DNA of 64,000 nt, from assembly GCA_018302545.1 (NCBI GenBank), contig JAGVZM010000003.1:40058-104057 (forward strand), given 5' to 3'. This document shows, one piece after another, positions 4,306 through 28,845 of this stretch; within the stretch, counting starts at the first letter, position 1; each line of letters opens with the position of its first letter. Both the position numbers and the translations under genes were made by a program. The notes under the pieces were generated by a model that was given only the letters and a program-made list of their open reading frames with translations, made no database searches and was not told where the DNA came from. This stretch comes from Candidatus Woesearchaeota archaeon (GTDB lineage Archaea; Nanobdellota; Nanobdellia; SCGC-AAA011-G17; GW2011-AR18).

Positions 4306-7035
4306 TTATCTCCTAAAACCCATTCTAGGACCAATTTTTCTAGGACTCTTAATTTCTCTAATAACTGAATCTATTTGGTTATCTCTCCAACCTTTAGATT
4401 TCAAGGCAATCTTTATTTTGCCTTCATTCAATCCCTTATTTAAAGAATTTTGTACAAACATCTTTAATGATTGATGATCCCTTTCAGTTTTAAACAAACC
4501 GCCACCAAAAGATCCTGAAACTGATGAAACAACCTTCCCAAATTTCTTATTCAAAAAACCACCTTTAAAGAACAATCCAAAATAAATTATAATTCCAATT
4601 ACAATAACAGCGACACCAATTAAAATGAATAGGAAAGTATTACCTTTTTTACAATCTTTAGGGCAACTAAGTTCATCTTCATCCTCTTCACAGAAATTAT
4701 TTCCACATTCACTTAATATTTCCACTTCGCCGTTTTTAGTAGTAGACTTATCTACCTCAACACTTTCTAAATCTGCAGGTAACACTGCCGTTCTTGCTTG
4801 TAGGGCTTTATTTAAATCTGTAGTATCTAACTTGTAAGCTATTTCATTTGAATATGCAAAACTATAAACTCCAGAAGCTGCATTAGTAATATTTCCCCCC
4901 TTAAAGACATCATCATTTCCTATTGAAAATCCAAAAGGTAAAAATTCATAAATTTTATTCCCATCACCATTTATAATTTTTTTAATGACTGTATATTCCT
5001 CTTTACTTCCATCAATATACTGTAAGTTCACAACCCTAGCTTCAAAATTCACATTTACATTTTTTTGAGCAGTTAGTAATTTAGTTCTTTGTAATTCTGT
5101 CGTAAACTCACAACAAGATTTAATTTGGTTTAATCCATTTATTTTTCCACCATCATTAAAATTAGAGCTATCTACATTAAAACTAATTGGTATTTTTGAG
5201 GATATAAATCCGGCTTGGCTTAATAAAGGAGCAATTAAACCATTTTTTTGTTGATCAGTTAAAGTAGCATTATTATTTATTCTATCAAATTTATTTTTTA
5301 TATCTGTTAGATTAGCTTCAAAATTATTTAATTTAGAATTTAATCCTATTAAATCAGCTGTATCTTTAACCTTTTCATTACCTTTTCTCAAATTATCTTT
5401 AAATAAACTCAAAGAACTTAAAGTAGTATTAATTATATTTCCACTTCCGCTGCTATCATTGCCAATTTCTATAAATACTTTATCAACATCAATCAAGCCT
5501 TCACTATCTTTAACTTTTAATTTTATCTCATAAACTCCAATTTTAGTATAGGTATAAGTCACAACTGGACCATTTCCTGTTTTTCCATCTCCAAAATCCC
5601 ATGTATAATTAATAATATTTCTTCCAAGAGGAGCAGTACTTGCACTTGCATCAAAAGTAACTAATTCTCCCTTTCCAGGTTTAAATGGATCAATTGTAAA
5701 AAATGCTACTGGAGCATCTACGACTTCAAATTTAGTTTTATTCGTTCTGCTTCCATTAAATTCAACATAAAATTCATAATCATTATCTTTTTCTTTCGGA
5801 GTAAGTACTGTATTTAATGACTCTAAATTTATGTTTACTAATCTATCATATTTTAAAGCTTCAGGAACATGGTTTATTTTCTTAAATTGTCTTTCTGTTG
5901 CAGAACTACCCCCTACTAAATATCTAAAGAATAAATTAGTTATCTTAACATCTCCACCACTACCAACTGTAAAATTAAGAGGCATAACTAAACTTCCAGA
6001 ATCACTCATATAATTATCAATATCCTCTTTTTTTATTTCAACTTGTTTTATATTACTAGGACCAACATTCAAGGCTTTATTATAAGTCATATACTGTCCA
6101 AAAATATAAAAATTCCTATTAAATTGGTTTTCTGCTCCATTAAAAAAAGAATTTTTAGGCTGTGTTGCTTTTGTTTTAATATCAAAATAATCTGTACTAT
6201 CTTCATTCGCGTTTGTTGGGTAAACACAGAAGTATAAAGGTTTATCTTCAGGAATATTCTTTATAATATCACAATCAACTTCTCTCATAGAATTACTTAA
6301 TCCATTAAGAGTACAACAAGGTGTTTCTTCTTGGCAAGCTTGATCTGAATCTCCCAAAACTTCCTCACTAATTGTAGCATTTAATCCAACATTAGGATCA
6401 CTAACCTTTTTCTGAGCAAAAACTTTAACTTTATATTTTCCAGAAGAATTAACATTAATTAATTGACACAAAACACTATTTCCTGTTATGCCCTGAGTTC
6501 CTTCAGTTCCAGAATCTGTAATATGTTTATTACTTAAATCAATAAAACCAGTTTCTCCACCCCTATATTCATAAATTTTTTTCTCCCCTAAATATATAGC
6601 TAGATCTCTCACGTTCCTTCCAATAGCTTCGACATCAAAAGTGAAATTAGTTACATCAACATCTCCAGAAGAAAAACCATTGCCACTTAAATCAACACCA
6701 ACCTCTATTTTAGAACCACCAGAAGAATTAAATTCTAATATTCCATTAGAATTTCCAACAGGACCAAAAGTAGCAGGAACTATATTATTTCCTTTATACA
6801 AATCTGCAGCCTGAAATAATTGCTTTAAAGTAACTTTATTATCTGAATCCCCATTATAAAAAATAACTTCAGAATTAGATGGAATATTTCCAGAGAAATT
6901 AAATTTAAAATAACCATCAAATGTATTATCAGGCCCATATTTTGTTCTTGTTAAATTAGTATCAACAAAAACATTTGCAAAAACAAAATTGCTTAATAAA
7001 ACAATAAATAAAACAATAAATAATCCTCTTTTCAT
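4306..7035 (-). CDS. Large cell-surface (S-layer-like) protein with PKD domain and C-terminal TM anchor
   Basis: Signal peptide. PKD-like segment (TWDFGDGKTG...YTYT). Cys-rich stalk, one C-terminal TM helix and a short basic tail. Confidence 0.55.
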   Translation of the reverse strand: MKRGLFIVLFIVLLSNFVFANVFVDTNLTRTKYGPDNTFDGYFKFNFSGNIPSNSEVIFYNGDSDNKVTLKQLFQAADLYKGNNIVPATFGPVGNSNGILEFNSSGGSKIEVGVDLSGNGFSSGDVDVTNFTFDVEAIGRNVRDLAIYLGEKKIYEYRGGETGFIDLSNKHITDSGTEGTQGITGNSVLCQLINVNSSGKYKVKVFAQKKVSDPNVGLNATISEEVLGDSDQACQEETPCCTLNGLSNSMREVDCDIIKNIPEDKPLYFCVYPTNANEDSTDYFDIKTKATQPKNSFFNGAENQFNRNFYIFGQYMTYNKALNVGPSNIKQVEIKKEDIDNYMSDSGSLVMPLNFTVGSGGDVKITNLFFRYLVGGSSATERQFKKINHVPEALKYDRLVNINLESLNTVLTPKEKDNDYEFYVEFNGSRTNKTKFEVVDAPVAFFTIDPFKPGKGELVTFDASASTAPLGRNIINYTWDFGDGKTGNGPVVTYTYTKIGVYEIKLKVKDSEGLIDVDKVFIEIGNDSSGSGNIINTTLSSLSLFKDNLRKGNEKVKDTADLIGLNSKLNNFEANLTDIKNKFDRINNNATLTDQQKNGLIAPLLSQAGFISSKIPISFNVDSSNFNDGGKINGLNQIKSCCEFTTELQRTKLLTAQKNVNVNFEARVVNLQYIDGSKEEYTVIKKIINGDGNKIYEFLPFGFSIGNDDVFKGGNITNAASGVYSFAYSNEIAYKLDTTDLNKALQARTAVLPADLESVEVDKSTTKNGEVEILSECGNNFCEEDEDELSCPKDCKKGNTFLFILIGVAVIVIGIIIYFGLFFKGGFLNKKFGKVVSSVSGSFGGGLFKTERDHQSLKMFVQNSLNKGLNEGKIKIALKSKGWRDNQIDSVIREIKSPRKIGPRMGFRR

Positions 7036-11203: not shown

Positions 11204-11590
11204 TTATATATAAGGAATTTGAATTCTTAATCTTTCTTCCTCTTGCGAAATTACAGATCTCAATAATATTTGATCATCTAATTTGGTAAAATCTAATCCT
11301 AATCTCCTTTCTAAATATCTTATCGGATCTGCTGCAACTCTAAATACTAAATCTAAAGGCCCGCCTCTTCTTGTACATCCATAACAAATATATAAATTAC
11401 TTTTAGGCTTTAAGTAAAAAGAAGGTTCTTTCTCATCATGAAAAATACACAAACCTTTATAGTTTGATCCACTTGTTTGTTTTTTTACTCTATCTCCAAT
11501 TAAATCTAATCCAACAAATAAAATATCTAAATTTTCTAATGTTCTAAAAACTAAGTCTTCTTCTCCTCCAAAAAGTAAAAGTTGTTTCAT
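11204..11590 (-). CDS. Stand-alone CHC2 zinc-finger protein (bacterial DnaG primase zinc-binding-domain-like)
   Basis: CIFHDEKEPSFYLKPKSNLYICYGCTRRGG matches the CHC2 finger C-x-F-H-x-E-x-x-P-S-F...Y-x-C-x-x-C. Confidence 0.55.
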   Translation of the reverse strand: MKQLLLFGGEEDLVFRTLENLDILFVGLDLIGDRVKKQTSGSNYKGLCIFHDEKEPSFYLKPKSNLYICYGCTRRGGPLDLVFRVAADPIRYLERRLGLDFTKLDDQILLRSVISQEEERLRIQIPYI

Positions 11591-11595
11591 TATTA

Positions 11596-11681
11596 AGCCT
11601 CTGACGGGATTTGAACCCGCGATCTCCGCCTATTTAGACTATTTTACCAAGGCGATGCTCTACCAACTAAGCCACAGAGGC
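11596..11681 (-). tRNA. tRNA-Thr(GGU) with 13-nt intron at position 37/38. No encoded CCA.
   Basis: Manual fold gives acceptor GCCUCUG/CAGAGGC, D-arm with G18G19, anticodon stem UCGCC/GGCGG, loop UUGGUA|A, T-arm GCGGG-UUCAAAU-CCCGU and discriminator U. Confidence 0.85.
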
Positions 11682-12737: not shown

Positions 12738-14159
12738 TTAACCAGCAATCATATATAATCTCTCTCTATATTCAGCGCCTTTACCATCTCTATTAATTTT
12801 ATTTCTTAACTTCCTTAAAGCTTTATAATAATTTTGTTCTACTGCTTGACGGCTTATACCCCATGAACTAGCTATATCAACAAAACTTTCTTTTTTTCCA
12901 GAAAAACCAATTTTTCTCAAAAGTGCATCCCTTTGTCTTTTAGTTAGTTTAGATTCACCCATTAATAATTGAAGATCTGCTCTCAAAGCAAATCTTTCCT
13001 GTCTTAAAAATGATTCTTCTAAATCTACTGAGAATTTCTCATCTTCTAATAATTCAGAGTAGTCCTCTCCATCTTCATTAGACTGAGCATGTATACTGCT
13101 TGTTTTTGGCATCTCTAATAAAACAGTTTCTATTATTTTACATTCTTTAGCAATAACCTCTGATAATGAACCTTCAAAACCATTAAGGTTAGATCCACTT
13201 TCTTTTAGTTTACCAATTAAACCTTCAAAAGTATCACTTTTTTTCCTATCTCTTTTTAATTTTTTAGCTATTTGATGTTCTAAAGATCTTATTGCAACTT
13301 CTTGTTCAGAAGGATCCCTACGTAATTCTTCACTCAATTCTTTTTTAACTCTTTTAATCTTATTATATTTTATACTCCTATCATTAGGTACTCTTATAGT
13401 CCCACTTTGATCTTTTGATCCCCGTATCATATTCCCTCTAATCCTATGCTCTGCATAAGTAAGAAATCTTAAACCAGACCTATGATCATAGAGTTCTACA
13501 GCTCTTTCTAATCCTAAATTTCCTTCTTGAATAGCATCTAAAAGAGATAAGCCCCTTCTTCGTCTTCCATGAGCGAGAGGCACAACTAGATGTAGATTAC
13601 CTTCTATCAACTTACTCTTTATCCCCCTATACATATAAAGATTTTCTTCAATTCCATCTTTGACACTTTTAAACTCTGAATAATCTCCATCCTGAATAAC
13701 ACTTCTAAGATCTGAAGCTGCTTTTCTAATCACAATTGGAGGAATCTCATTAAAGAATCCTCTATATACTTCTTCAGATTTTTCATCACCAATTAGAGCT
13801 TCCATTAATCTTCTATAAGGATGTTTTTCAGGCAAGGAACCAAAACCATCACTTTCAAAATTTTTAATTTGTTCTTTAGAAAATAAACGCGTTTTTGAAG
13901 TTCCCCTATAACTTAAATAGTGTGGAACTAACAAGTACATTCCTGTTCTTCTTGAATAAACTCCTGTTGCTGAATAAGGGAATACTTGTAATTCTGTTGT
14001 AACAAGATAAGAAGCTAAATTATCATGAACAGCTGTTAACTCACCAACAATTCTTCTTTCATCACACTCATCGATCTTAGGTGTTTTAGCAATATTCCTT
14101 AAATATATTGTTTCTGCACTAAGTCCATTATCTGTATTATTTTTATTTTGTTTTTTCAT
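12738..14159 (-). CDS. RNA polymerase sigma-70 family factor (regions 1.2, 2, 3 and 4 all present)
   Basis: Region 2 GLSLLDAIQEGNLGLERAVELYDHRSGLRFLTYAEHRIRGNMIRGSKDQSGTIRVP versus the RpoD consensus [56 protein letters not shown]. Region 4 HTH LTKRQRDALL...ISRQAVEQ. Confidence 0.8.
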   Translation of the reverse strand: MKKQNKNNTDNGLSAETIYLRNIAKTPKIDECDERRIVGELTAVHDNLASYLVTTELQVFPYSATGVYSRRTGMYLLVPHYLSYRGTSKTRLFSKEQIKNFESDGFGSLPEKHPYRRLMEALIGDEKSEEVYRGFFNEIPPIVIRKAASDLRSVIQDGDYSEFKSVKDGIEENLYMYRGIKSKLIEGNLHLVVPLAHGRRRRGLSLLDAIQEGNLGLERAVELYDHRSGLRFLTYAEHRIRGNMIRGSKDQSGTIRVPNDRSIKYNKIKRVKKELSEELRRDPSEQEVAIRSLEHQIAKKLKRDRKKSDTFEGLIGKLKESGSNLNGFEGSLSEVIAKECKIIETVLLEMPKTSSIHAQSNEDGEDYSELLEDEKFSVDLEESFLRQERFALRADLQLLMGESKLTKRQRDALLRKIGFSGKKESFVDIASSWGISRQAVEQNYYKALRKLRNKINRDGKGAEYRERLYMIAG

Positions 14160-16085: not shown

Positions 16086-18674
16086 TCATTTTAACAAATC
16101 TACATCATGATGTCTGCTTTCTTTCATTCCAGCACCAGTAATCCTAATAAACTCTGCATTTTTCCATAACTCATTAATACTCTTAGATCCACAATAACTC
16201 ATCCCACTTTTCAATCCACCAATTAATTGGTAAATAACTTCTGTAACTTTCCCTCTATAAGGAATAGTCCCCTCAACGCCTTCAGGAACAACATCACTTA
16301 TGTCTGCATCATCTTTACCACTTTCTCTTTCTTTCTTACTTTTATTTGCACCAAAACCAGCCATTCCCCTATAAATTTTATATTTCCTTCCTTCCTTTAT
16401 TATTGTTTGTCCAGGACTTTCATCAGTTCCTGCTAACATATTTCCTAACATAACTGTAGAAGCTCCAGCTGCTAAAGCCTTAACAATATCTCCAGATTGT
16501 TTAATTCCACCATCAGCAATAACTGTAATTCCCACTTCATTCGCAACTTTAGCAGAATCCATAACAGCCGTTAATTGAGGCACACCACAACCAGTCTGAA
16601 TTCTAGTTATACAAATTGAATTATGAACTATTGCATTATTTGCTATAAAACTATGAGTAGGACAATCTATTTCCAAATCATAAACTTTAACACATAAATC
16701 TGTTTTTTCATTTTTTAATAATTTTACAACTTGATAATCTTCAGATAATCTTTTTTCTCCTGTATTTATTATTTCAGAAATATAACTTTGGCTAAAATTA
16801 TCCAAATTAGCATTTTTCAAATTACCTTTACTAATTTTCTTTTTTTGATTATTTGGAAATACACCTTTTAATAAATAGTGAACAATATTAAATAATTCTA
16901 TTAATTTTATTGAAGTATTTGAAAATCTTATTCTTCCCCTTTCTTCTATATTTCCATCTGTATCAATTAAACCATCTAAAATACCTTGCAAATATTCTCT
17001 ATTATTAATTAAATATTTTTGTGGTAATTCTTTATTTTTCTTTTTTCCAAAAGATTGTAAAAAATCTGAAAACGGTTTATAATATAAAATAACTTGAATT
17101 ATATTCTCTTTATATGTTACTTTACATTCTTTATTAAAGATATTTATTATAAATTTCATTAATTTATTAACTTTATCAATTTCATGCTTCCCAAAATACC
17201 ATCTAACAGAACCAACACGAGAATTTTTCTTTGAAATGCCGCTATGTGAAGACCCATCACCTAAAAATGTTCCAAAAATATAACCTAATTCATAACAAGG
17301 TTCAAGACTTACATCATTTAGATATTTATATCGAATTATCCAATTACCCCCAACTCTTTTTTTCAAATTAATTTTAAAATATTGTTCTAGTTCAAACTTT
17401 ATTTCTCTAGGAATTAATAAAACATCTTGTCTAAAATCTTTTACTTCTTTCCACTTGTATTTTGAAGCTTTAGGAATTGTTTTGCTTTGTTTTTGTAATA
17501 ATCTTACATAACCCCTACTTTGTATAGTTTCAATTGAAGAAGTATTCAAGTCTCCTACCCAATACCTATGTTCTGGAGTTACATGGGTTTCTTCATAAAA
17601 TATAGAGTTTCTAATTTTTCTAACTTCTTTAATTCCAGTACAAAATGCTTTTTTAACATTCACAGGTTCTCCATTCTTATTTATTACTCTTTCACCAGCC
17701 TTAATTTCTTCAATATTTTTATAAATTCCATTAGACATTAATACCCTAGTTCCTGCAGCAAAACAGCCCCCTCCAACTCCGACCTTAATACAATCTGCTC
17801 CCGCATTAATTAAATCTAAAGTTCCTTCAGCTGTAGCAACATTTCCAGCAATTATTTGAACATCTCCAAATCTATCTTTAATATTTTTTATAGTAGAAAG
17901 AGTCATATCATGATGTCCATGCGCAACATCTATACAAAGAACATCACATCCAACCTTAATTAAAGCTTCAGTTCTATCCAAATAATCTCCTTTAACCCCA
18001 ACAGCAGCACCAACTAATAATCTCCCTTTCTTATCTTTAGTAGCCAGAGGATGTTTCTCTCTATTAGTTATATCCTTAGCAGTAATTAACCCTTTTAAAA
18101 TTCCTTTACTATCAATTAAAGGAAGTTTCTCAATTTTATTTTGCTTTAATATTTCTTTTGCATTTTCAATATCTTTATTTATGTCACCAATAATTGATTT
18201 TTCTTTTGGAGTCATCAAATCTTTAATTTGTTTTAATAAATTGTCCTCAAACATCATATCTGTGTTTGTTAAAATTCCCACATATCTTCCAACATTATCT
18301 GTAATGGGAATTCCTGTAATATTTTTATCCTGCATTAAAATTTTAGCATCTTTTAAATTATGTTCTGGAGTTAAAGTATAAGGATTCTCTATTACAATTG
18401 CTTCTGATCTTTTAACTTTTAAAATTTCTTTAACTTGGTCGTCTATAGTTAAAAATCTATGAATAATTCCAAGACCCCCTTGTCTTGCCATTTCAATTGC
18501 CATTGCACTTTCCGTAACAGTATCCATATTGGCGCTTATTATAGGCATATTTAGTTTAATTTTATTAGTTAAAAAAGAACTTATATCAACATTTTTTCTA
18601 GAATATATATTGGAAAGTTTAGGAACTAATAAAACATCATCATAAGCTAATGCCTCTCTTATTTCATTATTCAT
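16086..18674 (-). CDS. guaB: Inosine-5'-monophosphate dehydrogenase containing an in-frame intein
   Basis: N-extein carries IMPDH and CBS domains. Catalytic loop VGVGGG|SICITR is split by 382 aa starting with Cys and ending HN. The intein holds two LAGLIDADG blocks. Confidence 0.9.
16620..17765 (-). other. Intein (382 aa) with LAGLIDADG homing-endonuclease domain, inserted at the IMPDH catalytic-Cys loop
   Basis: N-terminal Cys1 (CFAAGTRV). C-terminal ...IVHN with +1 Ser. Endonuclease blocks [13 protein letters not shown] and [14 protein letters not shown]. Confidence 0.8.
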
Positions 18675-18735: not shown

Positions 18736-21087
18736 TTAGAAACTACCTAAATCTAATTGCTTATTACCTTTTAATACATCCTCAAAATTAGTATTGAAAA
18801 AAACAAGAATTGAATCAGCAATAGGTTGTATCTGTCTTTTAATATAATGTTCATAATCGATTTTACTTTTCATCTTCTCTACAGGTTCTGGACCGTCTTC
18901 TGTGATTACATATTTTATTTTATTTGATTCTATTATCCCCCCTCTTTCTAAAAGTTTTCTAGCAGACAAAATGTGGGGTGGTGTAATCTTAGTGTATTCT
19001 TTTAAATCTTTCCTAATACTTTTAGTATAAACTAACATCTCATCATATTTTCCTTTTCTAACATCATCTACAAACTTCTTTGTAAATTTAACAACATCTT
19101 TATTATGAAAGACTCTATCTAATAATTCTTCTTGATATTTTTTAGCTAATTCAGTCCAATCAGATCTCACGGTTTCAAGTCCAGTAAATTCAATTTCCTC
19201 TTTTCCATTCTTAATGACTAAACCCGCATATCTCTTTTTAGCTCCCTCTTCCCTACCTCTAAGTTTAGGCATTAAACATTTAATGAAACATTTTTCATAC
19301 CTCAATTCTAAATAACTTTGACGTTTATACTCTTCTTTAATTAGATGATCATAAAATTCATTTATGTGTTTTTGAATCTTCTTTCCAATCTTATCTGCTT
19401 CTTCTAAATTTTTTGCTTTAGAAACTACAAATGAGCTGTCTGTGTCTTGATAAATTACTTCATAACCTAATTTTTCAATTTCTTTAGAAGTTAATTGAAT
19501 AATATATTGACCAAAATGAGTGATTGCATTTGCAACATTCATATCAAAAAATCTACAACTAGGAGAAGCTAAAACTCCAAAGAAAGAATTACTCAAAATC
19601 TTAATTGCATATCTTGTTAATTCATCTTTTTCTTTTCTTGCTTTTTCCCTTTCATGATATAATTCCGTTAAGATTATTGGCATTATTCCATCTTCATTTC
19701 TAAAGCAAGCTCCATTGGGTGCTTTGATTAAATTTTTACCTTTACAATATTCAACATAAGAGTAAGGATCAATATTAAAACTTCTCATCATACTAGGATA
19801 CAGACTTTTAAAATCTAAAATTAGAATATAATCGTAAATTCCAGGTTTACTCTCCTTAACATATCCCCCTTTAATTGGTTCCTCCTTCAAAGCGAATTTA
19901 GCACTAGGACAAACAATCTTTCTCTTTGTAGTCTCTCTTATATACAAAGAGTCAAGCGAAGCAATTGAAGCATTTACTCTATCTAAGGGCATACCTGTTA
20001 ATAAACTTCTTAATATAGTTAATTCAAATACTCCGCTCTTTTCTAAAATTCTTAATACTAAATCTGCATCTTTAAGATTATATGCAGCTAATTTTTTCTT
20101 ATTATTTCTCCATAGATCATCAATTTCTAAGTATTTATCATGTCCTGTAGTTTTGATTAATTTACCATCCCCTAAAATCTCTCCAGCTACAGTATCAAGT
20201 TTGAAATCTTTAGGTTTAATAAAAGAAACCTTCAATAAATTCAAACCATCTAAAACTTGCCTTCCAATAACATCAACTTTACTATCTTTAAAAAAATCAC
20301 TCTCAATTCTCAACTTAACTTTAGATCTCTCTCTGCCAAAATCAAAAGGAACTTTTAATTTATCACATTTTCCCTTTAAATAATCTAAATCAAAATCAAT
20401 AACATTCCAACCAGTAATAACATCAGGATCTAACTCTATAATATCATTAATAAAATTCTCAAGAACATTAGTTTCACCATTGCAAGAAATAGCACCTTCA
20501 ATTTTATCTTTAGAATTAATGAAAACTTTATTTACATTTCCACAAACATAACCTATGCAATATAATTCATCATTTTTAGGATCACCTTTACTACTTTCTA
20601 TATCAAAACTTAAAATCTTAATATTCTTCGGTTTATAATTATGAATTCCTATTATATCTGGCTCCTTATAAATTCTATCAACTCTTTCACCTATTTCATA
20701 TTCCCCCTCTATCTCTAAACTTCCTTGAATATCATGATCCATCATAAACCTATAAGAAAATCTTATATCTGCTTCATAACTTTCAATTCCTACTTCTGAA
20801 AACTGTTTTTTTAATTTAGGAACTTCTGCAGGAATATCCAAAAAAATCTTAATTACTTTATTGCCATTAAAATTTTGAAAATCGTCATCACTTACTTCAA
20901 AATCAGTTATACCCTTAGCTAATTTTAAATCTTGTTTTTTAATATAAAAATAAGGTTTATAAGAATTAACTGTTAGAAAACTTTCCCCATTCTCTAATCT
21001 TCCATATAAACAAACAAAAGATTTTCCACCAATTACTTTATATGTGGGATAAATAACAAAACCTTTCATAATGATAAAATGTATCAA
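18736..21087 (-). CDS. polB: Family B DNA polymerase
   Basis: Exo I FDIES. Pol motif A DFKSLYPSMM. Motif B KILSNSFFG. Motif C YQDTDS. Confidence 0.9.
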   Translation of the reverse strand: MIHFIIMKGFVIYPTYKVIGGKSFVCLYGRLENGESFLTVNSYKPYFYIKKQDLKLAKGITDFEVSDDDFQNFNGNKVIKIFLDIPAEVPKLKKQFSEVGIESYEADIRFSYRFMMDHDIQGSLEIEGEYEIGERVDRIYKEPDIIGIHNYKPKNIKILSFDIESSKGDPKNDELYCIGYVCGNVNKVFINSKDKIEGAISCNGETNVLENFINDIIELDPDVITGWNVIDFDLDYLKGKCDKLKVPFDFGRERSKVKLRIESDFFKDSKVDVIGRQVLDGLNLLKVSFIKPKDFKLDTVAGEILGDGKLIKTTGHDKYLEIDDLWRNNKKKLAAYNLKDADLVLRILEKSGVFELTILRSLLTGMPLDRVNASIASLDSLYIRETTKRKIVCPSAKFALKEEPIKGGYVKESKPGIYDYILILDFKSLYPSMMRSFNIDPYSYVEYCKGKNLIKAPNGACFRNEDGIMPIILTELYHEREKARKEKDELTRYAIKILSNSFFGVLASPSCRFFDMNVANAITHFGQYIIQLTSKEIEKLGYEVIYQDTDSSFVVSKAKNLEEADKIGKKIQKHINEFYDHLIKEEYKRQSYLELRYEKCFIKCLMPKLRGREEGAKKRYAGLVIKNGKEEIEFTGLETVRSDWTELAKKYQEELLDRVFHNKDVVKFTKKFVDDVRKGKYDEMLVYTKSIRKDLKEYTKITPPHILSARKLLERGGIIESNKIKYVITEDGPEPVEKMKSKIDYEHYIKRQIQPIADSILVFFNTNFEDVLKGNKQLDLGSF

Positions 21088-21140
21088 AACTATATAAATC
21101 TAATCGATAGCAATTTAAAATTTTCTATAAAAATTAAAAT

Positions 21141-21707
21141 ATGCATTCATATAACTTTTTATCAGGAGCAAGAGAAAAGCTAAAGGCTTATAAAAAACCA
21201 AATGACTTAGAGTTACTTGCAGCAACAGATGATCAAATAAAAGAGGAAAGCCCAGATCTACCTAATGAATCCTCAAAAAGATGTTTAAGGTCACAAACAT
21301 ATCTATTCTTAGATGACTGTAGAAGACTAGTCGAAGAGAATAAGCCCTATCGACCTTATCAAATAGGGATGGGAGCATTCTTCGGTGCAATGATTGGAGA
21401 AGGAATAAATCAAGCATTAAACACCAACAGTGTTATAAAAGGAATAGTACATGTAGGGTTTGCAGCAATAGGAACTACATTATGTAGATTGATAGGTGTT
21501 TATTTTAGAGAAGAAAGAATAAGAAATTTTGCAATTATCTATGCTGAAACCCTAGATGAAATACACAAAGGAAATTGCCTAGGAAAAATGGAATATACTC
21601 TTCCAGATAGTCCAGACTATAATCCAAGAACAATAAAGGCAAGAATGAAAAAAGCAAAACCTGAAAAAGTTTTAGAGTATAATCTTGAACTAAAAAACAG
21701 GCAATAA
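21141..21707 (+). CDS. Hypothetical protein (GC-richer)
   Basis: ORF only. Confidence 0.4.
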   Translation: MHSYNFLSGAREKLKAYKKPNDLELLAATDDQIKEESPDLPNESSKRCLRSQTYLFLDDCRRLVEENKPYRPYQIGMGAFFGAMIGEGINQALNTNSVIKGIVHVGFAAIGTTLCRLIGVYFREERIRNFAIIYAETLDEIHKGNCLGKMEYTLPDSPDYNPRTIKARMKKAKPEKVLEYNLELKNRQ

Positions 21708-21718
21708 TTTAAACAAAA

Positions 21719-23554
21719 CTATAAACTTTTAGGCGTAAGAGAAATTTCTTGAGAAACATCAACTTTTTCATCTCCTAAATAACCACCATAAAATTTATAC
21801 ATTGTTGTAGGATCAATATAAGCGCTATAGTTCTTTCTTTCAATTTTAAAATCTAATTTAAAACCAAAGTGCAAATGGACTCCACTCTTACCTTTAACCC
21901 TCCCAGTTCTTCCCATCTGCATAAGATCCTGTCCTAAACCAACTTGATCTAAAGGAGAAACATTAAAAGTATTAGGAACACCATGCAAATAGAATGTTTC
22001 AAATCCTAATTCAGGTTTACCATGTCTAACTTTAACATAATAACCATTAATATTATCTGAACCAGTATCTACAACAACCCCATCCATCACTGAATATATA
22101 GGATCTCCTTGAACTCCAGCTGTAGCAGGAGCAATGTCTATACCGTTATGGTGTCTTCCCCACCTTACCCCAAAATAAGAATTTATCTCAGTATTGACAG
22201 TAGGCCAACCTACACCTTGTTTTAAAGTCAAATAATAAGCCATTACTCTCCTTACATAATCATTTGTTTGATAAGTAAGATGATGTAAAACATCCCAGAT
22301 ATCATTGCTTCCAGCTTTTAGTTTTGCTTCTTTAACTTTTTTAGGACCAGCATTGTAATTTGCTAAAATCTCTACTAAAGAATCTTCTCCTGATGATGGG
22401 GAGTATCTACTATAAAGAGCAATACTATACACCGCTGCTCTTATATTTTCAGATGGATCATTTTTTACTTTATCCCAAGAAAATTCTTCACCACTCAAAA
22501 CCCCGCTTCTAATCAACCTATTTAATTCATCAACATTAATTCTTGTTTGTTGAGTAAGTCCATAAGCATCTTCTCCAGATTTTTTTACTTTTCTTTTCTT
22601 CCCATCAAAGTGTTTGAAATCTCCAGATTCAACAATTGCAATGGCTCTTCCAAAATCAGGATCAACCTCAAAATTATTTCTTTGATTAAATCTTTCTGCA
22701 TGATAGGCAAATGCATCCCAATAAGTTAATTGACCTTGTTCAAAAACATAACCTTCTCTACCTCTCCTTATTTCTTCTTTTCTTTTAATCTCCATTCTAG
22801 GAAGTTCAGGAATTTTTATTCTTTCAACCAAGCCGCTAATATCAGGAGTAGTTAATCCTGGTCTTTCAAGTGCAGCATGTGCAGCGCTAACTGAAAATAA
22901 AGCATATAATAAAGGGACTTTAGATGCCATCCTATTCCTTGCAGGAATCTTAGCTTTTTTTCTATTAAAATATCTTGACAAATCTCTACCAACTTTAACA
23001 CCCAATCCTGAAATTAATCCACCAACACCTAATTTAACCAAATCAAAATCATCTATAACAGTATAACCTAAATGTAAAGTTCCAGCACCAGCCACAAGAG
23101 GTAAAAGATATTTATTATTAACAAATTTATTTTCAGTCAAAAATCTCCTAGCATCAACAATTTTTTGATGCACCTTTCTTAATGCTCCTTTACCTTTAAC
23201 AACATAACTTCCTTTACTTTGATCATATAATCTATATAAATTAATACCTGTAGGAACTGCAATTCCAAATATTCCTGTTAAGCTAGCACCCCATTCTAAT
23301 ATAGAATAAGTTGTATCTCCAATAAACATTCCCATTTGAGTGCTTTCAACACTTAAAGCAAGACCTGCAGCACCAGGAATTAACCATTTCTCAACATGGG
23401 GCTTTATATCTCTTAATGTAGAGTTAAGTCTATCATCTAATTTACCAATTCCTTTTAAGAGTATATCTAATCCCATAACAATACAATTACCACAACTAAG
23501 TAGAAAATTTATAAAGATTTGTATAAGATAAAATTTGTCACTAATAAGAGACAA
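21719..23554 (-). CDS. Membrane-anchored peptidoglycan hydrolase with lytic transglycosylase (SLT) and M23 peptidase domains
   Basis: SLT motif ES...GLTQQ. M23 motifs HNGIDIA and HLHFG. N-terminal TM segments. GC-richer. Confidence 0.7.
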   Translation of the reverse strand: MSLISDKFYLIQIFINFLLSCGNCIVMGLDILLKGIGKLDDRLNSTLRDIKPHVEKWLIPGAAGLALSVESTQMGMFIGDTTYSILEWGASLTGIFGIAVPTGINLYRLYDQSKGSYVVKGKGALRKVHQKIVDARRFLTENKFVNNKYLLPLVAGAGTLHLGYTVIDDFDLVKLGVGGLISGLGVKVGRDLSRYFNRKKAKIPARNRMASKVPLLYALFSVSAAHAALERPGLTTPDISGLVERIKIPELPRMEIKRKEEIRRGREGYVFEQGQLTYWDAFAYHAERFNQRNNFEVDPDFGRAIAIVESGDFKHFDGKKRKVKKSGEDAYGLTQQTRINVDELNRLIRSGVLSGEEFSWDKVKNDPSENIRAAVYSIALYSRYSPSSGEDSLVEILANYNAGPKKVKEAKLKAGSNDIWDVLHHLTYQTNDYVRRVMAYYLTLKQGVGWPTVNTEINSYFGVRWGRHHNGIDIAPATAGVQGDPIYSVMDGVVVDTGSDNINGYYVKVRHGKPELGFETFYLHGVPNTFNVSPLDQVGLGQDLMQMGRTGRVKGKSGVHLHFGFKLDFKIERKNYSAYIDPTTMYKFYGGYLGDEKVDVSQEISLTPKSL

Positions 23555-23557
23555 TAA

Positions 23558-23707
23558 TTACAGTTCATCATCAAATCTATTGTTTAATCTTTTTTGGCAA
23601 GAACTACAAACAATTTTTCTTTTTCCATCAATTTTAATATAAGTTCCATCAATCTTACCAAGAAATAAAGTTTCAACCTTATTTTTACAAATATCACATT
23701 TAGTCAT
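23558..23707 (-). CDS. Small zinc-ribbon protein (49 aa, CxxC...CxxC), not in the supplied ORF track
   Basis: Manual translation MTKCDICKNKVETLF...CSSCQKRL. Confidence 0.35.
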   Translation of the reverse strand: MTKCDICKNKVETLFLGKIDGTYIKIDGKRKIVCSSCQKRLNNRFDDEL

Positions 23708-23737
23708 ATTAATAAAATATTAAATTATTATTTAAAA

Positions 23738-24943
23738 TTATTCTAATTGATTAAATCTTCCATTATACCTATTATCCCCATAACTAGCACCATCAAATTT
23801 TAAATCCCTTAAACAAACGCTTCTGTAAAATACTTCTCTGCCTAAATCTTCAGCACCACCAACAACTTCAATTTCTCCTTCAAAAGGAGCAGGAATACTA
23901 CTCTTACCTTTAATATGTATCATTCTTTGACTCTCTGTAGATGGGTGATTCTTACAATCAACACAGATACCATACATAACTTCAACTTCATCAGCTAAAC
24001 ACATCAAAGCGCTTGTTTCACCAAACCTTTTTCTATTGTAAGTTCTAGCTAATCCAAACACAACAATATCATATCCTTCAGATAATAAATTATGTACAGG
24101 CATATAAAGACCTTTAAGAGGTTCATCTTTTAAACCGATAAATTGAGATTCATCAATAAACACAGTTTTAACATTAGGATTTCTAATTACTCTATCGTAA
24201 ACCTCTTGTCCATTTGTAACCCCTATAGAATCAAATTCAGCCCTATCATGTGTTGCACATTTTCCTGTTTCAGAATACCTATTATCAGCTGCATAATTAA
24301 AAACCATAAATTCATTTTGTCTTAATTCTTCTTCAGCAACTAAATCTCCTAAAGTGGTTGTTTTTCCAACATACATCGGACCTGTTTTTACCATTAATTT
24401 TCCATGTCTTGGCCTTCCACCTTGTTTTGAAAAATGAGTAACACACCTAGGCTCATAATCTCTATCAATTTTAATACTTCTTCCAGCAGGAAGTTCACAA
24501 AAACCATCACCACATATAGCTTTCAAAACCTTAACATCATCAGAAATAGCCATTAAATCTGCCATAGAACCATAAGGCCAACCTTCTGAATCTAAATTTA
24601 AACCATAACCTATAACATTCCTGCCACTTCTAACTAAAGAATCAACTAAATCGACTATTCCTTCCTCCTTTTTAAAATGAGAAATTCCAGAGATTAGTAT
24701 CGCTCTAGTTTCATCAGTAATCAGTTCTGCAATTCCATTAGGATGTTCTAAAACATAGGCTTCATGACCTCCAATTTTACCAGGACTTCCAACATCATCC
24801 ATGGGATGTTTAACAACTAAAAAATTACCATTATGCTTGAAACCACTTGCTCTTGCAGAATTTAGAACTCTTACAGCATGGAATGTTTTTCTGGATTTAA
24901 CCGGACCAGAAAATAAAGTAAATTTCGCTAGTTTATAGGGCAA
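23738..24943 (-). CDS. tdk: Tandem-duplicated thymidine kinase (TK1 type). The N-terminal copy has a degenerate P-loop.
   Basis: C-terminal half has GPMYVGKTT, FIDESQF and a CxxC ribbon. N-terminal half is a TK-like fold with GPVKSRKT. Confidence 0.7.
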   Translation of the reverse strand: MPYKLAKFTLFSGPVKSRKTFHAVRVLNSARASGFKHNGNFLVVKHPMDDVGSPGKIGGHEAYVLEHPNGIAELITDETRAILISGISHFKKEEGIVDLVDSLVRSGRNVIGYGLNLDSEGWPYGSMADLMAISDDVKVLKAICGDGFCELPAGRSIKIDRDYEPRCVTHFSKQGGRPRHGKLMVKTGPMYVGKTTTLGDLVAEEELRQNEFMVFNYAADNRYSETGKCATHDRAEFDSIGVTNGQEVYDRVIRNPNVKTVFIDESQFIGLKDEPLKGLYMPVHNLLSEGYDIVVFGLARTYNRKRFGETSALMCLADEVEVMYGICVDCKNHPSTESQRMIHIKGKSSIPAPFEGEIEVVGGAEDLGREVFYRSVCLRDLKFDGASYGDNRYNGRFNQLE

Positions 24944-25111
24944 TACAGGTATGATCTTAATTCACCTCTCTCGAATTAATTTGAGATTTTTACTCAAACA
25001 AAATTGAGATAATGAGTTTATTAATAAACTTTACTTATGTTAAAAAATATAAAAAGAATTTTAATTCAAAAATCCAAAAATTAATTAAACCTTTGCAAAT
25101 TATTTTAATAA

Positions 25112-26893
25112 ATGAGAAAAGTATTAGCTATTGTAGAAAAAGACAAATGTCATCCAGATAAATGTCAGCATGAATGTATGAAATATGATCCAATAAATAA
25201 AACAGGGGGAGAAGGATTCCATATTAGTGAAGAAACCAAAAAGGCATGTATAAGCGATTCTGTAGTTATGGAAATGCATAAGATTTCAGCAAAAAAATGC
25301 CCCTTTCATGCAATTCACATTGTTAATCTGCCTGAAAAATTAAAAGAAGATCCAATACACAGTTATGGTTTAAACTCATTCGAGCTTTATTCACTGCCTC
25401 ATGTAAAAGAAAAGACAGTAGTTGGAATAATTGGAAGAAATGGAATTGGAAAATCTTCAGCATTACAATTTTTAACAGGAACTATAAAACCAAATTTAGG
25501 AAATTATCAAAAGCCTCTAAAAGAAAATGAAATAATTGAGAGATATTCAAATTCTTGGGTGGGAGAATATTTCAAAAAATTACTAAATAAACAATTAAAA
25601 ATTGCTTACAAACCTCAGCGTGTGGAGTTGCTCACTTCAATTTACAAAGGATATACTGTAAAAGAATTATTAAGCAAAGTAGATGAAAGAAAAATAATTC
25701 ACACACTATTAAATGATTTAGATATCCCAACAATAGAAAATAGAAAAATAGAAGAATTATCTGGTGGAGAATTACAAAGAGTTGCGATAATTGCAACAGT
25801 AGCTAAAAAAGCTGATGTTTATTATTTTGATGAGCCCTCATCTTTTTTGGATATAACTCATAGGATAAAAGCTGCTAGATTAATAAGATCTTTAGCTGAA
25901 AATTCTTCTGTTGTAGTAGTTGAACATGACTTAGCCACATTGGATTATATATCAGATGAAATCCAAATTGTTTATGGAGAACAAGCATGTTACGGTATAT
26001 TCTCTCAATCTAAAGCAGTAAGAAGAGGTATTAATGAGTATATGGAAGGTTTTCTACCTGATGAAAACATAAAGTTCAGACCATACTCAATAAAATTTGA
26101 AGAGCGCCCCATAGATAAATTTGTCTCACAAGAATTAATTTTAGAATTTCCAGAATTAGAAAAATCATATACATCATTTAAATTAAAAACCTCTCCTGGA
26201 AAATTACACAGAGGAGAAGTATTAACAATTATGGGAGCGAATGGTTTAGGCAAATCTACATTCTTAAAACTACTTTCAGGATTAGAAATTTCAGATAAAG
26301 GAAAATTAGAAAAGGTAAGGATAAGTTATAAACCTCAATACTTAAAAAATGATATTGAGGGTAATGTAGAGGATTATCTCAAGGGAATAGCAGGTTCTGA
26401 ATTCAATTCTTCTTGGTTCAAAGCGAATATTTTAGAAAAACTGAATATACAATCAATTTTACAAAATAAAATTTCTGAACTATCTGGAGGAGAATTACAA
26501 AAAGTTCACATAGCTGCTTGTCTAGCTTGTCCAGACAAAGATATAATAACAATGGATGAGCCTTCTGCTTTTATAGATGTAGAAGATAGATTAAATGTAG
26601 CAGAGATAATTAAGGATTTTGTAATAAACAAAAACATCGCAGCAATAATTGTAGATCATGATATCCAATTTATAGATTACTTAGCAGATTCTATGTTAGT
26701 CTTTGAAGGAACTCCTGCAAAGGAGGGACATGTTTTAGGAACTTTATCTAAAAGAGAAGGAATGAACAAAGTTCTAAAAGATTTAGATATTACTTATAGA
26801 AGAGATAAACAAACTGGTAGACCGCGTATCAATAAACCAGGTTCTCAATTAGATCAAGAACAAAGACATAAAGGGGAACATTACTATATCTAA
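25112..26893 (+). CDS. abcE1: ABCE1 (RNase L inhibitor, RLI), ribosome recycling ATPase with twin ABC domains
   Basis: N-terminal CHPDKC...KCPFHAIHIVNLPE, two Walker A/B domains and signature LSGGELQ. Several Fe-S ligand cysteines are replaced. Confidence 0.85.
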   Translation: MRKVLAIVEKDKCHPDKCQHECMKYDPINKTGGEGFHISEETKKACISDSVVMEMHKISAKKCPFHAIHIVNLPEKLKEDPIHSYGLNSFELYSLPHVKEKTVVGIIGRNGIGKSSALQFLTGTIKPNLGNYQKPLKENEIIERYSNSWVGEYFKKLLNKQLKIAYKPQRVELLTSIYKGYTVKELLSKVDERKIIHTLLNDLDIPTIENRKIEELSGGELQRVAIIATVAKKADVYYFDEPSSFLDITHRIKAARLIRSLAENSSVVVVEHDLATLDYISDEIQIVYGEQACYGIFSQSKAVRRGINEYMEGFLPDENIKFRPYSIKFEERPIDKFVSQELILEFPELEKSYTSFKLKTSPGKLHRGEVLTIMGANGLGKSTFLKLLSGLEISDKGKLEKVRISYKPQYLKNDIEGNVEDYLKGIAGSEFNSSWFKANILEKLNIQSILQNKISELSGGELQKVHIAACLACPDKDIITMDEPSAFIDVEDRLNVAEIIKDFVINKNIAAIIVDHDIQFIDYLADSMLVFEGTPAKEGHVLGTLSKREGMNKVLKDLDITYRRDKQTGRPRINKPGSQLDQEQRHKGEHYYI

Positions 26894-28698
26894 TAACCAA
26901 TTTGTTTTCTTATTGCTTTTAAATGAGGCACCAATGCTTTAGTCCAACTTTCTAAAACACCTTCAACTCTTCCACCAATTAAATCATTTATATCCACAAG
27001 ATTACCTTCAACAATAGACTTATCCTTAACTCGAACTTCTCCATCTGTATAAGTAGCATAAATTAATCCAAAATGATCCTTATCTACTTCTTCATCCTCA
27101 ACATATAAAGTTCCTACTAAGCTTGGTTCTGAATATTTTTCTTCAAACGTAACATCTCCTAAAACTTTATCTCTCAAACAATTAGCAATATAATCTGGCC
27201 CATGAGATCTAGCAACATGACCTCCAACTCCAATAGAGATTTTATCAAATAATCTTTTATCTCCATAATCCTTAATGTCACTAGATCTTCTATAAATAAA
27301 CACCTTATCTGAATTAGTAAATATGAGCATATAATCAATTACTTGCAAGACCTCAGGATCGCCTTCACAATCATATCTAGAATGGAAAAATCCTTTTTCA
27401 CATGTTTTTATTATCTCCCCTCTTTGAGCATCAGAATCTATAGATTCAAAACCAAATCTACCTCTTCTATTATTCAATAAACTCTCTTTCTCTTCAACCA
27501 ATACCAATCTATCTAATTTTCCATGTTCTTTAGCAGCACTTTTATAATCAAAATTAGTAAAATGCTTTGAAACTTTTGGGCCCCTCTGTCCTTGATAACT
27601 AGAACCTATTTTAGATCCATAAACTTTATCTGCATCCACTTCACATCTAAAAACATCTAATACACTTATAGGCATGCCATGTTCTAGTGCAATAGGTTTT
27701 AATTCATCTGATCTTACTTCAAAAACCAAATCTCCTAAGAATCCAGGATCTATAAAACCTGCAAAATGTAACATCCCTTGTATTCCAGTATGGTGTGTTG
27801 CCCTAACTTCAGAGCTTAATGCTGGACCAAACCTTAAAATTTCCGCAGAACTAAATAAATAATATTTTTCAGGTTCAATAACAACTCTTCCATCTTTAGC
27901 AAAAACAGGTTCGAAATAATCTTCAGACACTGACCCATTAGACTTTGATAAGTCAACAACAAAAGGAGGTTGTCTAGCCATTAAACCAACAATCCCAGAG
28001 CTAGACTTTCCTTCAAGATTTAATCTAACAACTAATTCTCCATTATCAATCTTAGCAGGAGTTAATGTTCCTCTTTCATCAGAATAGAGAAGCATAGGAT
28101 TTCTAATATGCTCTTCTATAATCTCCTTGTCATTTAACTTAGAATCTAAACCTTGGAAAAATCTAAGTTGGTTTAAAGTTAATCCTTCTGAAGCTTTTAC
28201 ATTAAATACCATAGGTTGTACTAATAACCATAGATCAGAAACACAACTATCTTCTCTTCCAATTAACTCATCAAAACTTGCGCTGTAATCTACTAATAAC
28301 CTAGTATTCAAAAAATTTCTTCCAGTTGTACTTTTAGGAGAAGATTTTACGCGTTGTCCTTCGCTTAATTTAATTTTTTCATTTAATTTTAATAAATAAG
28401 AATACCCAACTAATAAATGATCATCATCAAGTCTTATCTTTCTCCTTTTTCTCTTCTCTAAATGGAGTAAATGTCTATAAACCGAGTCTTTGCTAGTACC
28501 TTTAAAACCAGTAGCATCTAAAACATAACCATCTCCACTTAAAGTAGGTTCAAAAGAAGCAGGTTGCACTCTTTTTTCTAAAGCAGCACAATTATTTATT
28601 TCTTGAGATCCTTTAAAATTTCCCTCAGGAACAACTAACCTTCCTTCAACAATTAAATTTCTAATATCTTGAGAATTTAAAGCATAACCTCTTGTCAT
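26890..28698 (-). CDS. dCTP deaminase/dUTPase-superfamily protein, long form with extra C-terminal domain
   Basis: N-terminal DIRNLIVEGRLVV and HFAGFIDPGFLGDLVFEV resemble dCTP deaminase motifs. 602 aa. Confidence 0.45.
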   Translation of the reverse strand: MTRGYALNSQDIRNLIVEGRLVVPEGNFKGSQEINNCAALEKRVQPASFEPTLSGDGYVLDATGFKGTSKDSVYRHLLHLEKRKRRKIRLDDDHLLVGYSYLLKLNEKIKLSEGQRVKSSPKSTTGRNFLNTRLLVDYSASFDELIGREDSCVSDLWLLVQPMVFNVKASEGLTLNQLRFFQGLDSKLNDKEIIEEHIRNPMLLYSDERGTLTPAKIDNGELVVRLNLEGKSSSGIVGLMARQPPFVVDLSKSNGSVSEDYFEPVFAKDGRVVIEPEKYYLFSSAEILRFGPALSSEVRATHHTGIQGMLHFAGFIDPGFLGDLVFEVRSDELKPIALEHGMPISVLDVFRCEVDADKVYGSKIGSSYQGQRGPKVSKHFTNFDYKSAAKEHGKLDRLVLVEEKESLLNNRRGRFGFESIDSDAQRGEIIKTCEKGFFHSRYDCEGDPEVLQVIDYMLIFTNSDKVFIYRRSSDIKDYGDKRLFDKISIGVGGHVARSHGPDYIANCLRDKVLGDVTFEEKYSEPSLVGTLYVEDEEVDKDHFGLIYATYTDGEVRVKDKSIVEGNLVDINDLIGGRVEGVLESWTKALVPHLKAIRKQIGY

Positions 28699-28845
28699 GC
28701 TCTTGCATTCAATTTAACTTTTAAATACATTTATATCCAGAAAAAGTTACAACAAAACACTATTAAGGCTACAACTAAAATAGTAATAACAACTAAAAAC
28801 ATATTTTCTATTTAAGAAAATTATTTAAATCATTTCAACATCAGA

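Follow-up and report, generated by a model that had tools for sequence, protein, structure and literature searches.

What function can a predicted two-domain murein hydrolase have in an archaeon, when we know of no archaea of this group that make murein? The question is raised by a gene, here called SLT-M23, on the minus strand of a 64-kb stretch of the genome of a Candidatus Woesearchaeota archaeon (contig JAGVZM010000003.1; the whole stretch is referred to as the window). The gene lies in an uninterrupted open reading frame (ORF) at positions 21719..23554, which would encode 611 amino acids (aa) if read from a TTG codon; unless stated otherwise, residues are numbered in the 585-aa protein that starts at an internal ATG. 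On the grounds given below, the product is very probably an extracytoplasmic bifunctional murein hydrolase. The fuller statement, that it is a membrane-tethered bifunctional murein hydrolase of Woesearchaeota (DPANN) that acts on a bacterial partner, appears reasonably probable. The gene and the parts of its predicted product are as follows.

21719..23476, minus strand: SLT-M23 gene, ATG at 23476-23474, 585 codons plus stop
22865..23476, minus strand: N-terminal family-specific putative membrane region, aa 1-204 (hydropathy, AlphaFold2 model, loop charges)
22730..22864, minus strand: charged, poorly conserved linker, aa 205-249 (alignment; predicted local distance difference test score, pLDDT, below 50 for aa 208-241)
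22211..22729, minus strand: family-1 lytic transglycosylase (SLT/GH23) domain, aa 250-422 (Pfam, motifs, fold)
21752..22210, minus strand: Peptidase M23 (LytM/lysostaphin-type) domain, aa 423-575 (Pfam, PDB match, AlphaFold2 model)

Domain architecture and predicted active sites

The SLT domain was recognized by Pfam (PF01464, aa 292-421 in the 611-aa numbering; 29.4 bits against a gathering cutoff of 21.3, E 6e-7). It contains the VES motif with the catalytic glutamate E283 (codon 22628-22630), followed by YGLTQQ (305-310) and NYNAG (373-377). The glutamate is invariant in the 8 family sequences covering that position. The second and third motifs are conserved in the family as G(L/I)xQ(Q/H/L) and (A/N/S)Y(N/I)xG, the latter with invariant tyrosine and glycine, and an ENIRA motif is also invariant; one relative (P0010) has ET in place of ES at the catalytic motif. 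Sequence identity of this domain to known bacterial enzymes is 15-25%, and a profile of the family matched Pseudomonas aeruginosa Slt (E 4e-5), MltC and EtgA among the PDB sequences. When the domain was modelled alone with AlphaFold2 (pLDDT 86.6), the model displayed a goose-lysozyme-like all-alpha fold, and the top 39 matches found by Foldseek in the PDB were all Slt, Slt70, MltF, MltC, MltE or MltD, with template modelling (TM) scores of 0.50-0.66.

The M23 domain was detected with 52 bits (Pfam Peptidase_M23, PF01551; cutoff 28.7, E 8.5e-14). Its identity to known bacterial enzymes is 26-39%, and StM23 (PDB 9gy1) was matched with an E value of 6e-15 and 39% identity. The motifs HHNGIDIA (442-449), YLHG (496-499) and HLHF (534-537) contain the predicted zinc ligands H443 (22148-22150), D447 (22136-22138) and H536 (21869-21871) and the predicted catalytic histidines H498 (21983-21985) and H534 (21875-21877). 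H443, D447, H498 and H536 are each at least 90% conserved across 46 sequences, and H443, D447 and H534 are invariant in the family alignment (eight to nine members); relative P0005 has HLD in place of HLH. The AlphaFold2 model of aa 250-575 (pLDDT above 90) forms one continuous two-domain module. A Foldseek search with its C-terminal part, which has the beta-sheet core of M23 enzymes, returned StM23 (9gy1), LytM, DipM and ShyA, with target-normalised TM scores of 0.75-0.80 to StM23, DipM and LytM. In the non-catalytic LytM domains of the EnvC/NlpD type the HxxxD and HxH motifs and the middle histidine have been lost; all of these features of the active M23 subgroup are present here.

Every in-silico feature expected of a member of the two enzyme families was thus found, and both active sites are intact in sequence and predicted to be active. 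A first-pass annotation made from the DNA letters had described a fusion of SLT and M23 domains behind N-terminal transmembrane helices in an archaeon. Pfam, motifs, folds and the archaeal markers listed below bear out the fusion and its archaeal host: the sequences it quoted (ES...GLTQQ and HNGIDIA...HLHFG) are present, and neither the catalytic glutamate nor any of the M23 zinc ligands is missing.

A second copy of the locus was found in an ENA contig (ERZ27254845 k141_3144029, here L044), which is 99.93% identical over 8,129 bp to window positions 20712-28840. In this contig a TCA to TAA change at window position 22059 (S473*) truncates the M23 domain with loss of H498, H534 and H536. S473* is one of six mismatches in all; the others are one synonymous change 29 nt from it (window 22088) and four clustered in the thymidine kinase gene (24544-24641). 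S473* is either a strain variant in which SLT works alone or a consensus error.

Translation start and promoter-like element

The ATG at 23476 appears to be the true start, and the TTG at 23554 an artefact of ORF calling, because the database copy P0001 begins at that methionine, all homologues align from it onward, and a conserved TATA-like box sits within the TTG extension.

23508..23515, minus strand: TTTATAAA, archaeal TATA-box-like element preceded by an A-rich stretch resembling a transcription factor B recognition element (BRE), 31 nt upstream of the ATG

The sequence AA..TTTATA(A/T)A at about -30 of the ATG, which matches the archaeal BRE/TATA consensus, aligned in all seven related loci (7/7), and the flanks were diverged. 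By comparison with the known consensus, the element is likely to serve as promoter of the SLT-M23 gene.

N-terminal region and predicted topology

Five hydrophobic, glycine-rich helices were recognized in the N-terminal region (h1, 31-45; h2, 59-83; h3, 123-141; h4, 146-165; h5, 185-204). Their Kyte-Doolittle peaks (19-residue window) are 1.15-1.34 in this protein and 1.8-2.0 for h2 and h5 in the homologues; AlphaFold2 predicted the region to be helical with low pLDDT. The net charge of the loops is +7 for residues 84-122 and +7 for 166-184, but -1 for 46-58 and -3 for 142-145, a pattern broadly kept in 8 homologues. Since these charges obey the positive-inside rule, the topology is probably N-in/C-out, with probably five transmembrane helices and with the catalytic module outside the cell. 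The outcome is the same if h2 and h5 alone cross the membrane. The N-terminal transmembrane helices proposed in the first-pass annotation are therefore in agreement with the loop charges, less so with the moderate hydrophobicity and the low-confidence model. Residues 1-204 had no match in Pfam, NCBIfam or PHROGs, and in the exhaustive search of representative proteins the region was confined to the full-length family.

Relatives and conserved gene neighbourhood

A word-indexed search with the full protein returned a truncated identical copy and one M23 plus LysM protein. The family was recovered by exhaustive search of representative sequences, which yielded seven full-length relatives of 590-709 aa. 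A profile search of genome contigs with a 4-sequence alignment found a single metagenome-assembled genome (MAG), named 'Candidatus Woesearchaeota archaeon', and a metagenome scan yielded 31 loci, two of them family members and the others matching M23 alone. The immediate neighbours of the gene in the window are the following.

18736..21069, minus strand: family B DNA polymerase (PolB; Pfam), downstream neighbour
21141..21707, plus strand: 188-aa ORF on the opposite strand between SLT-M23 and PolB, this lineage only
23558..23707, minus strand: 49-aa zinc-ribbon ORF (ZnR49; CxxC...CxxC, MTKCDIC...CSSCQKRL), directly upstream of SLT-M23

The order ABCE1 and/or thymidine kinase, a 49-51-aa zinc-ribbon ORF, SLT-M23 and PolB was found in seven other assemblies from different samples. 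PolB is directly downstream and co-directional in every related locus that reaches that far (6/6; spacing 33-109 nt), and the seventh ends before PolB with the same order upstream. The zinc-ribbon ORF precedes SLT-M23 in all seven, with 49-61% identity, far above that of the hydrolase; searches of family libraries gave no match for it. The 188-aa ORF is absent from six related loci and present in the near-identical contig L044, and had no match in Pfam or the other family libraries. Genes for NrdR with ribonucleotide reductase (RNR), IMP dehydrogenase (IMPDH) and dUTPase occur nearby in the related loci, which also carry the archaeal markers S27e, L44e, deoxyhypusine synthase and TFIIS-type genes.

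A tRNA-Thr gene lies between the zinc-ribbon ORF and SLT-M23 in two of the loci (L002, 2622-2693; L008, 6172-6258). L001 and L004 contain similar tRNA-Thr sequences, apparently intron-bearing, that were missed by ARAGORN; the window has no tRNA at that spot.

Across the six syntenic loci SLT-M23 is 30-36% identical (tblastn). Identity of the neighbours between loci is 64-69% for PolB, 69-84% for ABCE1 and 58-81% for RNR (69-81% where the gene is complete). The order and identity of the neighbours show that a fairly deep clade inherited the SLT-M23 gene from its common ancestor and that vertical inheritance has gone on for a long time. The gene evolves much faster than those around it, a common trait of proteins that are exposed at the surface or take part in interactions.

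In every related locus PolB is provided with a TATA-like box of its own, and inserted genes on the opposite strand separate ZnR49 from SLT-M23 in L007 and SLT-M23 from PolB in the window. Because of these separate promoter-like boxes and of the insertions between the partners in two lineages, an SLT-M23/PolB operon was downgraded, and the adjacency is best read as inherited synteny.

Among more distant proteins, P0017 (740 aa) and P0021 (792 aa) combine SLT and M23 with a C-terminal LysM. P0015 has M23 and LysM with no SLT call from Pfam, and P0016 has TPR repeats in place of LysM. The contigs of P0017 and P0021 encode archaeal histones, CDP-archaeol synthase, diphthamide synthase, L37ae and prefoldin. 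The SLT plus M23 pair thus circulates in several archaeal lineages with differing targeting parts.

Host genome and nucleotide composition

Archaeal signatures of the window are ABCE1 with a Fer4 domain, aTrm56, the family B polymerase, three TrmB regulators and DUF7343. The GC content of the window is 29%. Composition was compared over the 59 window ORFs of 120 aa or more: GC of SLT-M23 is 33.1% against an ORF mean of 29.0% (standard deviation 3.2; z=1.26; rank 5/59), similar to the thymidine kinase, RNR and DnaK genes, and at third codon positions (GC3) the values are 15.0% for the gene and 16.0% on average (z=-0.2). The earlier statement that the gene is GC-richer is numerically correct, but the excess is unremarkable and, with GC3 average for the window, does not carry the bacterial origin that was deduced from it; recent transfer as judged from GC was rejected on the same ground. 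In the end, the SLT and M23 domains can only stem from bacteria or phages, but they were acquired long ago.

The sole strong composition outlier of the window is an ORF for a DUF2975 membrane protein (728-1243, plus strand; GC 39.3%, mean 29%; GC3 43%, mean 16%), a candidate for recent acquisition.

Proposed function

In the mechanism that we propose, the N-terminal region of about 200 aa would anchor the protein in the archaeal membrane and the rigid C-terminal two-domain module would be displayed outside the cell. The SLT domain would cut the N-acetylmuramic acid-N-acetylglucosamine (MurNAc-GlcNAc) backbone with E283 as acid/base, for which 1,6-anhydro-MurNAc ends are expected, and the M23 zinc endopeptidase (H443/D447/H536 with H498/H534) would cut peptide cross-links or stem peptides. 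In this way the peptidoglycan of a bacterial partner or prey could be opened or loosened where the two cells touch, helping the archaeon to attach, gain access or scavenge.

The data show directly which domains are present, that their active sites are intact, that the gene resides in an archaeon and has long been inherited vertically, and that its sequence diverges fast; the membrane topology, the peptidoglycan substrate and the bacterial target are the parts that we infer. As the enzyme would be tethered and lacks a wall-binding domain, its action should be limited to a sacculus in direct contact. Genes for murein synthesis (mur, penicillin-binding protein (PBP) or transglycosylase) were found neither in the 64-kb window nor in the related loci, and this, together with the contact-only action, suggests local breaching of the wall of a bacterial partner. 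The LysM domains of the distant archaeal relatives point to peptidoglycan as the substrate class. Murein-like lytic transglycosylases of Woesearchaeota and Pacearchaeota have been read as tools against bacteria (PMC8204110, PMC9723730, PMC10936187), scavenging of peptidoglycan has been proposed for Pacearchaeota (PMC11537232), and archaeal M23 hydrolases were shown experimentally to kill bacteria (PMC12352652). The first-pass annotation had considered the protein suited to breaching a bacterial wall; extracellular murein cleavage directed against bacteria is indeed the best reading, and matches the proposals in PMC8204110 and PMC9723730.

Several points weigh against this assignment. No recognisable peptidoglycan-binding domain (LysM, SH3, PG_binding or similar) was found in the protein with Pfam and the other family libraries. 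The N-terminal helices are weakly hydrophobic in this protein and were modelled with low confidence. Should S473* in L044 prove real, some cells at least can do without the peptidase. With 64 kb of the genome inspected, the organism may itself make a murein-like polymer. Moreover, SLT and M23 folds occasionally act on other substrates, and we know of no cultured DPANN archaeon that lives on a bacterium.

A bolder proposal is that SLT-M23 is a lineage-wide, contact-dependent 'wall opener' and that a whole clade of Woesearchaeota consists of obligate episymbionts or predators of bacteria. We put this forward tentatively and rather doubt that it holds in full. If true, SLT plus M23 would open the sacculus of the host where the cells attach, and the archaeon would feed on a bacterium across domains; the fast evolution of the protein would reflect an arms race with the wall chemistry of the host, and the specificity of M23 could predict hosts.

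Alternative explanations

The alternative that survives best is a released enzyme, an antibacterial weapon or a scavenging enzyme: the catalytic module would be cleaved off after h5 (AHA|AL) to lyse competitors or to obtain amino sugars and amino acids from wall debris. Helix h5 does resemble a signal anchor, with a positive stretch, then a hydrophobic segment and an AxA-like end, and both the secreted archaeal peptidoglycan hydrolases that kill bacteria (PMC12352652) and the scavenging proposal for Pacearchaeota (PMC11537232) would favour release. However, the AxA motif is not kept in the homologues, which speaks against cleavable-signal processing at AHA|AL. A conserved polytopic region of about 200 aa before h5 would be pointless in a simple secreted enzyme, and, once free to diffuse, the enzyme would have no wall-binding domain with which to stay on its target. 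We consider release unlikely.

It is also quite improbable, on balance, that the substrate is something other than bacterial murein, such as chitin-like glycans, envelope glycoproteins of a host archaeon or of the organism itself, or an archaeal murein-like polymer, with a role maybe in cell division coordinated with replication. Such a role would suit a gene that always lies beside the replicative PolB and nucleotide-salvage genes and that is stable and core-like rather than patchy, and genes for wall synthesis could lie elsewhere, 64 kb of the genome having been seen. Yet the window and the related loci hold no mur, PBP or transglycosylase synthesis gene, and co-transcription with PolB is unlikely in view of the promoter-like boxes and the opposite-strand insertions. 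In motifs and fold the SLT domain agrees with lytic transglycosylases specific for murein, and the distant archaeal relatives bear LysM. Pseudomurein, which contains no MurNAc, is not a substrate of lytic transglycosylases.

A part or remnant of a mobile element, either a viral tail or ejection protein or a wall hydrolase of a conjugation or type IV secretion system (T4SS) of the CwlT/PrgK/TraG kind, is very unlikely. The first-pass annotation had called the domain combination typical of phage tail lysins and secretion-associated hydrolases and had considered phage-derived cargo. The architecture does correspond: in cyanopodovirus ejection proteins and some tape-measure proteins, too, SLT and M23 come after a helical N-terminal part that acts on membranes (Foldseek BFVD; PDB 9k2v), and the T4SS hydrolases of Gram-positive bacteria are built in the same way. 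SLT-M23 is 18 kb away from a TnpB/IS605 gene. The correspondence is nevertheless an analogy that shows no ancestry, as the phage proteins are alike at the domain level only (TM about 0.2 on long alignments). No relative of SLT-M23 was found among IMG/VR viral contigs, and no match covering at least 80% of both catalytic domains was found by tblastn in 50,697 phage and 72,556 plasmid records; the matches obtained there concern the M23 part only, with about 35-38% identity. Virion, integrase, VirB4/VirD4 and relaxase genes were absent from the vicinity in all eight loci, and the 59 window ORFs and the related loci showed neither pilus genes nor the co-localised secretion genes that had been suggested as a check. 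Finally, the position between housekeeping genes is fixed, being conserved in the seven other assemblies, and GC3 is average. The idea of phage cargo was abandoned.

That a bacterial fragment was mis-binned or mis-joined into an archaeal contig, as both domains are typical of bacteria and the window also holds bacterial-type genes (sigma-70, NrdR, DnaK/J/GrpE), can be dismissed as an artefact of negligible probability, since the same junctions recur in seven other assemblies and in the independent 99.93%-identical contig, GC3 is native, the promoter box is of archaeal type, and bacterial-type sigma factors are already documented in Woesearchaeota (PMC8204110).

Other features of the window

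The bacterial-type sigma-70 factor (473 aa, 12738-14159, minus strand) is RpoD/SigA-like with regions 2, 3 and 4. Close to it are a stand-alone DnaG-type CHC2 zinc-finger ORF (128 aa, 11204-11590) and an 86-nt tRNA found with Rfam (60 bits; 11596-11681, minus strand), which was unreported by ARAGORN and may contain an intron.

A 509-aa protein (50613-52142, plus strand) has a Tat-like signal (RRALLQGAAATAGA) and a class-A beta-lactamase/penicillin-binding fold with all three signature motifs present (SMVK, SSN, KTG). It would be a second exported murein- or beta-lactam-related enzyme in a genome presumed to be without murein. Other candidate surface or secreted proteins are a 909-aa PKD-domain protein (4306-7035, minus strand) and a trypsin-like (HtrA-type) protease with an N-terminal coiled-coil or membrane segment (54531-55535, minus strand).

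The neighbourhood of SLT-M23 is rich in genes of nucleotide salvage and DNA precursor synthesis, encoding a 602-aa DCD fusion, dCMP deaminase, dUTPase, NrdR-RNR, adenylate kinase and IMPDH. The thymidine kinase gene (23738-24943, minus strand; 401 aa) is a tandem fusion of two thymidine kinase-like halves, with two Pfam thymidine kinase stretches. IMPDH (16086-18674, minus strand) is split by an intein with a LAGLIDADG endonuclease. PolB of the window has no intein (783 aa), and one is present in L001, L002, L004 and L007 (about 1,190 aa); L007 also has an intein in RNR, which the window lacks. The TnpB gene (2502-3653, plus strand) is a transposon-associated OrfB/TnpB gene of the IS605 family with a Cas12f-like TNB domain.

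Comparison with known systems

The closest precedent is fam00969, a murein-like lytic transglycosylase (GH23) family of Woesearchaeota and Pacearchaeota (Castelle et al. 2021, PMC8204110; see also Vigneron et al. 2022, PMC9723730), first noted in AR20. SLT-M23 is likewise a lytic transglycosylase-domain protein of a Woesearchaeota genome, as indicated by the archaeal markers and by the one named Woesearchaeota MAG. It shares with these proteins the host phylum, the SLT/GH23 domain, the proposed binding or degradation of the walls of bacterial partners and the fact that all are known from metagenomes only. The fam00969-type proteins are described as large and extracellular, up to about 3,000 aa with the lytic transglycosylase domain, whereas SLT-M23 has 585 aa and adds an intact M23 domain, a family-specific polytopic anchor and a fixed place beside PolB. 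Compared by description only, SLT-M23 and its relatives of 590-709 aa may belong to a different cluster from fam00969.

Modular archaeal peptidoglycan hydrolases were described by Strock et al. (2025, PMC12352652), for example the M23-PG_binding_1 protein 'Woldo' of Halogranum salarium, and M23 homologues were reported there in four Nanoarchaeia genomes. Like 'Woldo', SLT-M23 contains an archaeal M23 domain of bacterial ancestry with conserved catalytic residues. The enzymes of that study are secreted, carry wall-binding domains and are patchily distributed; SLT-M23 differs in its predicted tether, its lack of a binding domain, its second, glycosidase domain and its stable synteny. It falls outside the definition of a modular hydrolase used there, a catalytic plus a wall-binding domain, and would be missed by that screen because a wall-binding domain was required (PMC12352652).

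In fold, in the Glu-Ser, GLxQ and AYNAG-type motifs and in the HxxxD...HxH zinc site, SLT-M23 resembles Slt70, MltC, MltE and MltF on the one hand and LytM, StM23 and ShyA on the other. These are, however, bacterial autolysins acting on the producer's own wall, in contrast to the role proposed for SLT-M23. Similar in layout are the conjugation hydrolases of Gram-positive bacteria, CwlT (ICEBs1), PrgK (pCF10) and TraG (pIP501), in which a membrane anchor is combined with glycan-cleaving and peptidase domains and which make a local hole at the cell-cell contact. SLT-M23 has the same succession of anchor, glycan-cleaving domain and peptidase domain. It differs from them in that T4SS genes are not found nearby (no VirB4, VirD4, relaxase or pilus genes in the window ORFs or related loci), the N-terminus is unrelated, and plasmid matches are confined to M23 at about 35% identity. 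Moreover, CwlT, PrgK and TraG are bacterial, whereas SLT-M23 belongs to an archaeon, which presumably lacks a wall that the enzyme would have to cross on its own side. Phage proteins such as the cyanophage A4 pre-ejectosome protein (9k2v), the Cyanophage PP endopeptidase and a protein of S-CBP4 likewise have a long helical N-terminus followed by a lytic transglycosylase and M23. In their case the match to SLT-M23 is at the domain level, and the genes around SLT-M23 are housekeeping rather than viral, with no IMG/VR relative, unlike what would be expected of a tail, ejection or tape-measure lysin.

Woesearchaeota are among the most widespread uncultured archaea, and SLT-M23 bears on their hosts and lifestyle and on whether any DPANN archaeon lives on bacteria. 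The protein offers an experimental handle, being short, catalytically intact in sequence and long maintained, with a predicted soluble ectodomain (aa 250-585), and the bonds that it cuts would narrow the range of candidate hosts. Surveys that demand a wall-binding domain overlook membrane-tethered archaeal murein hydrolases of the kind proposed here.

Literature searches found this architecture nowhere described. Reports of murein hydrolases already exist for Woesearchaeota, Pacearchaeota and Nanoarchaeia, and bacterial membrane-anchored hydrolases with glycosidase and peptidase domains are known as well. What appears to be new is a small, defined family that combines a lineage-specific, probably polytopic anchor with both domains, in a fixed housekeeping neighbourhood and with its own archaeal promoter signature. 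SLT-M23 leaves the existing view of the phylum unchanged, and makes it more precise and testable.

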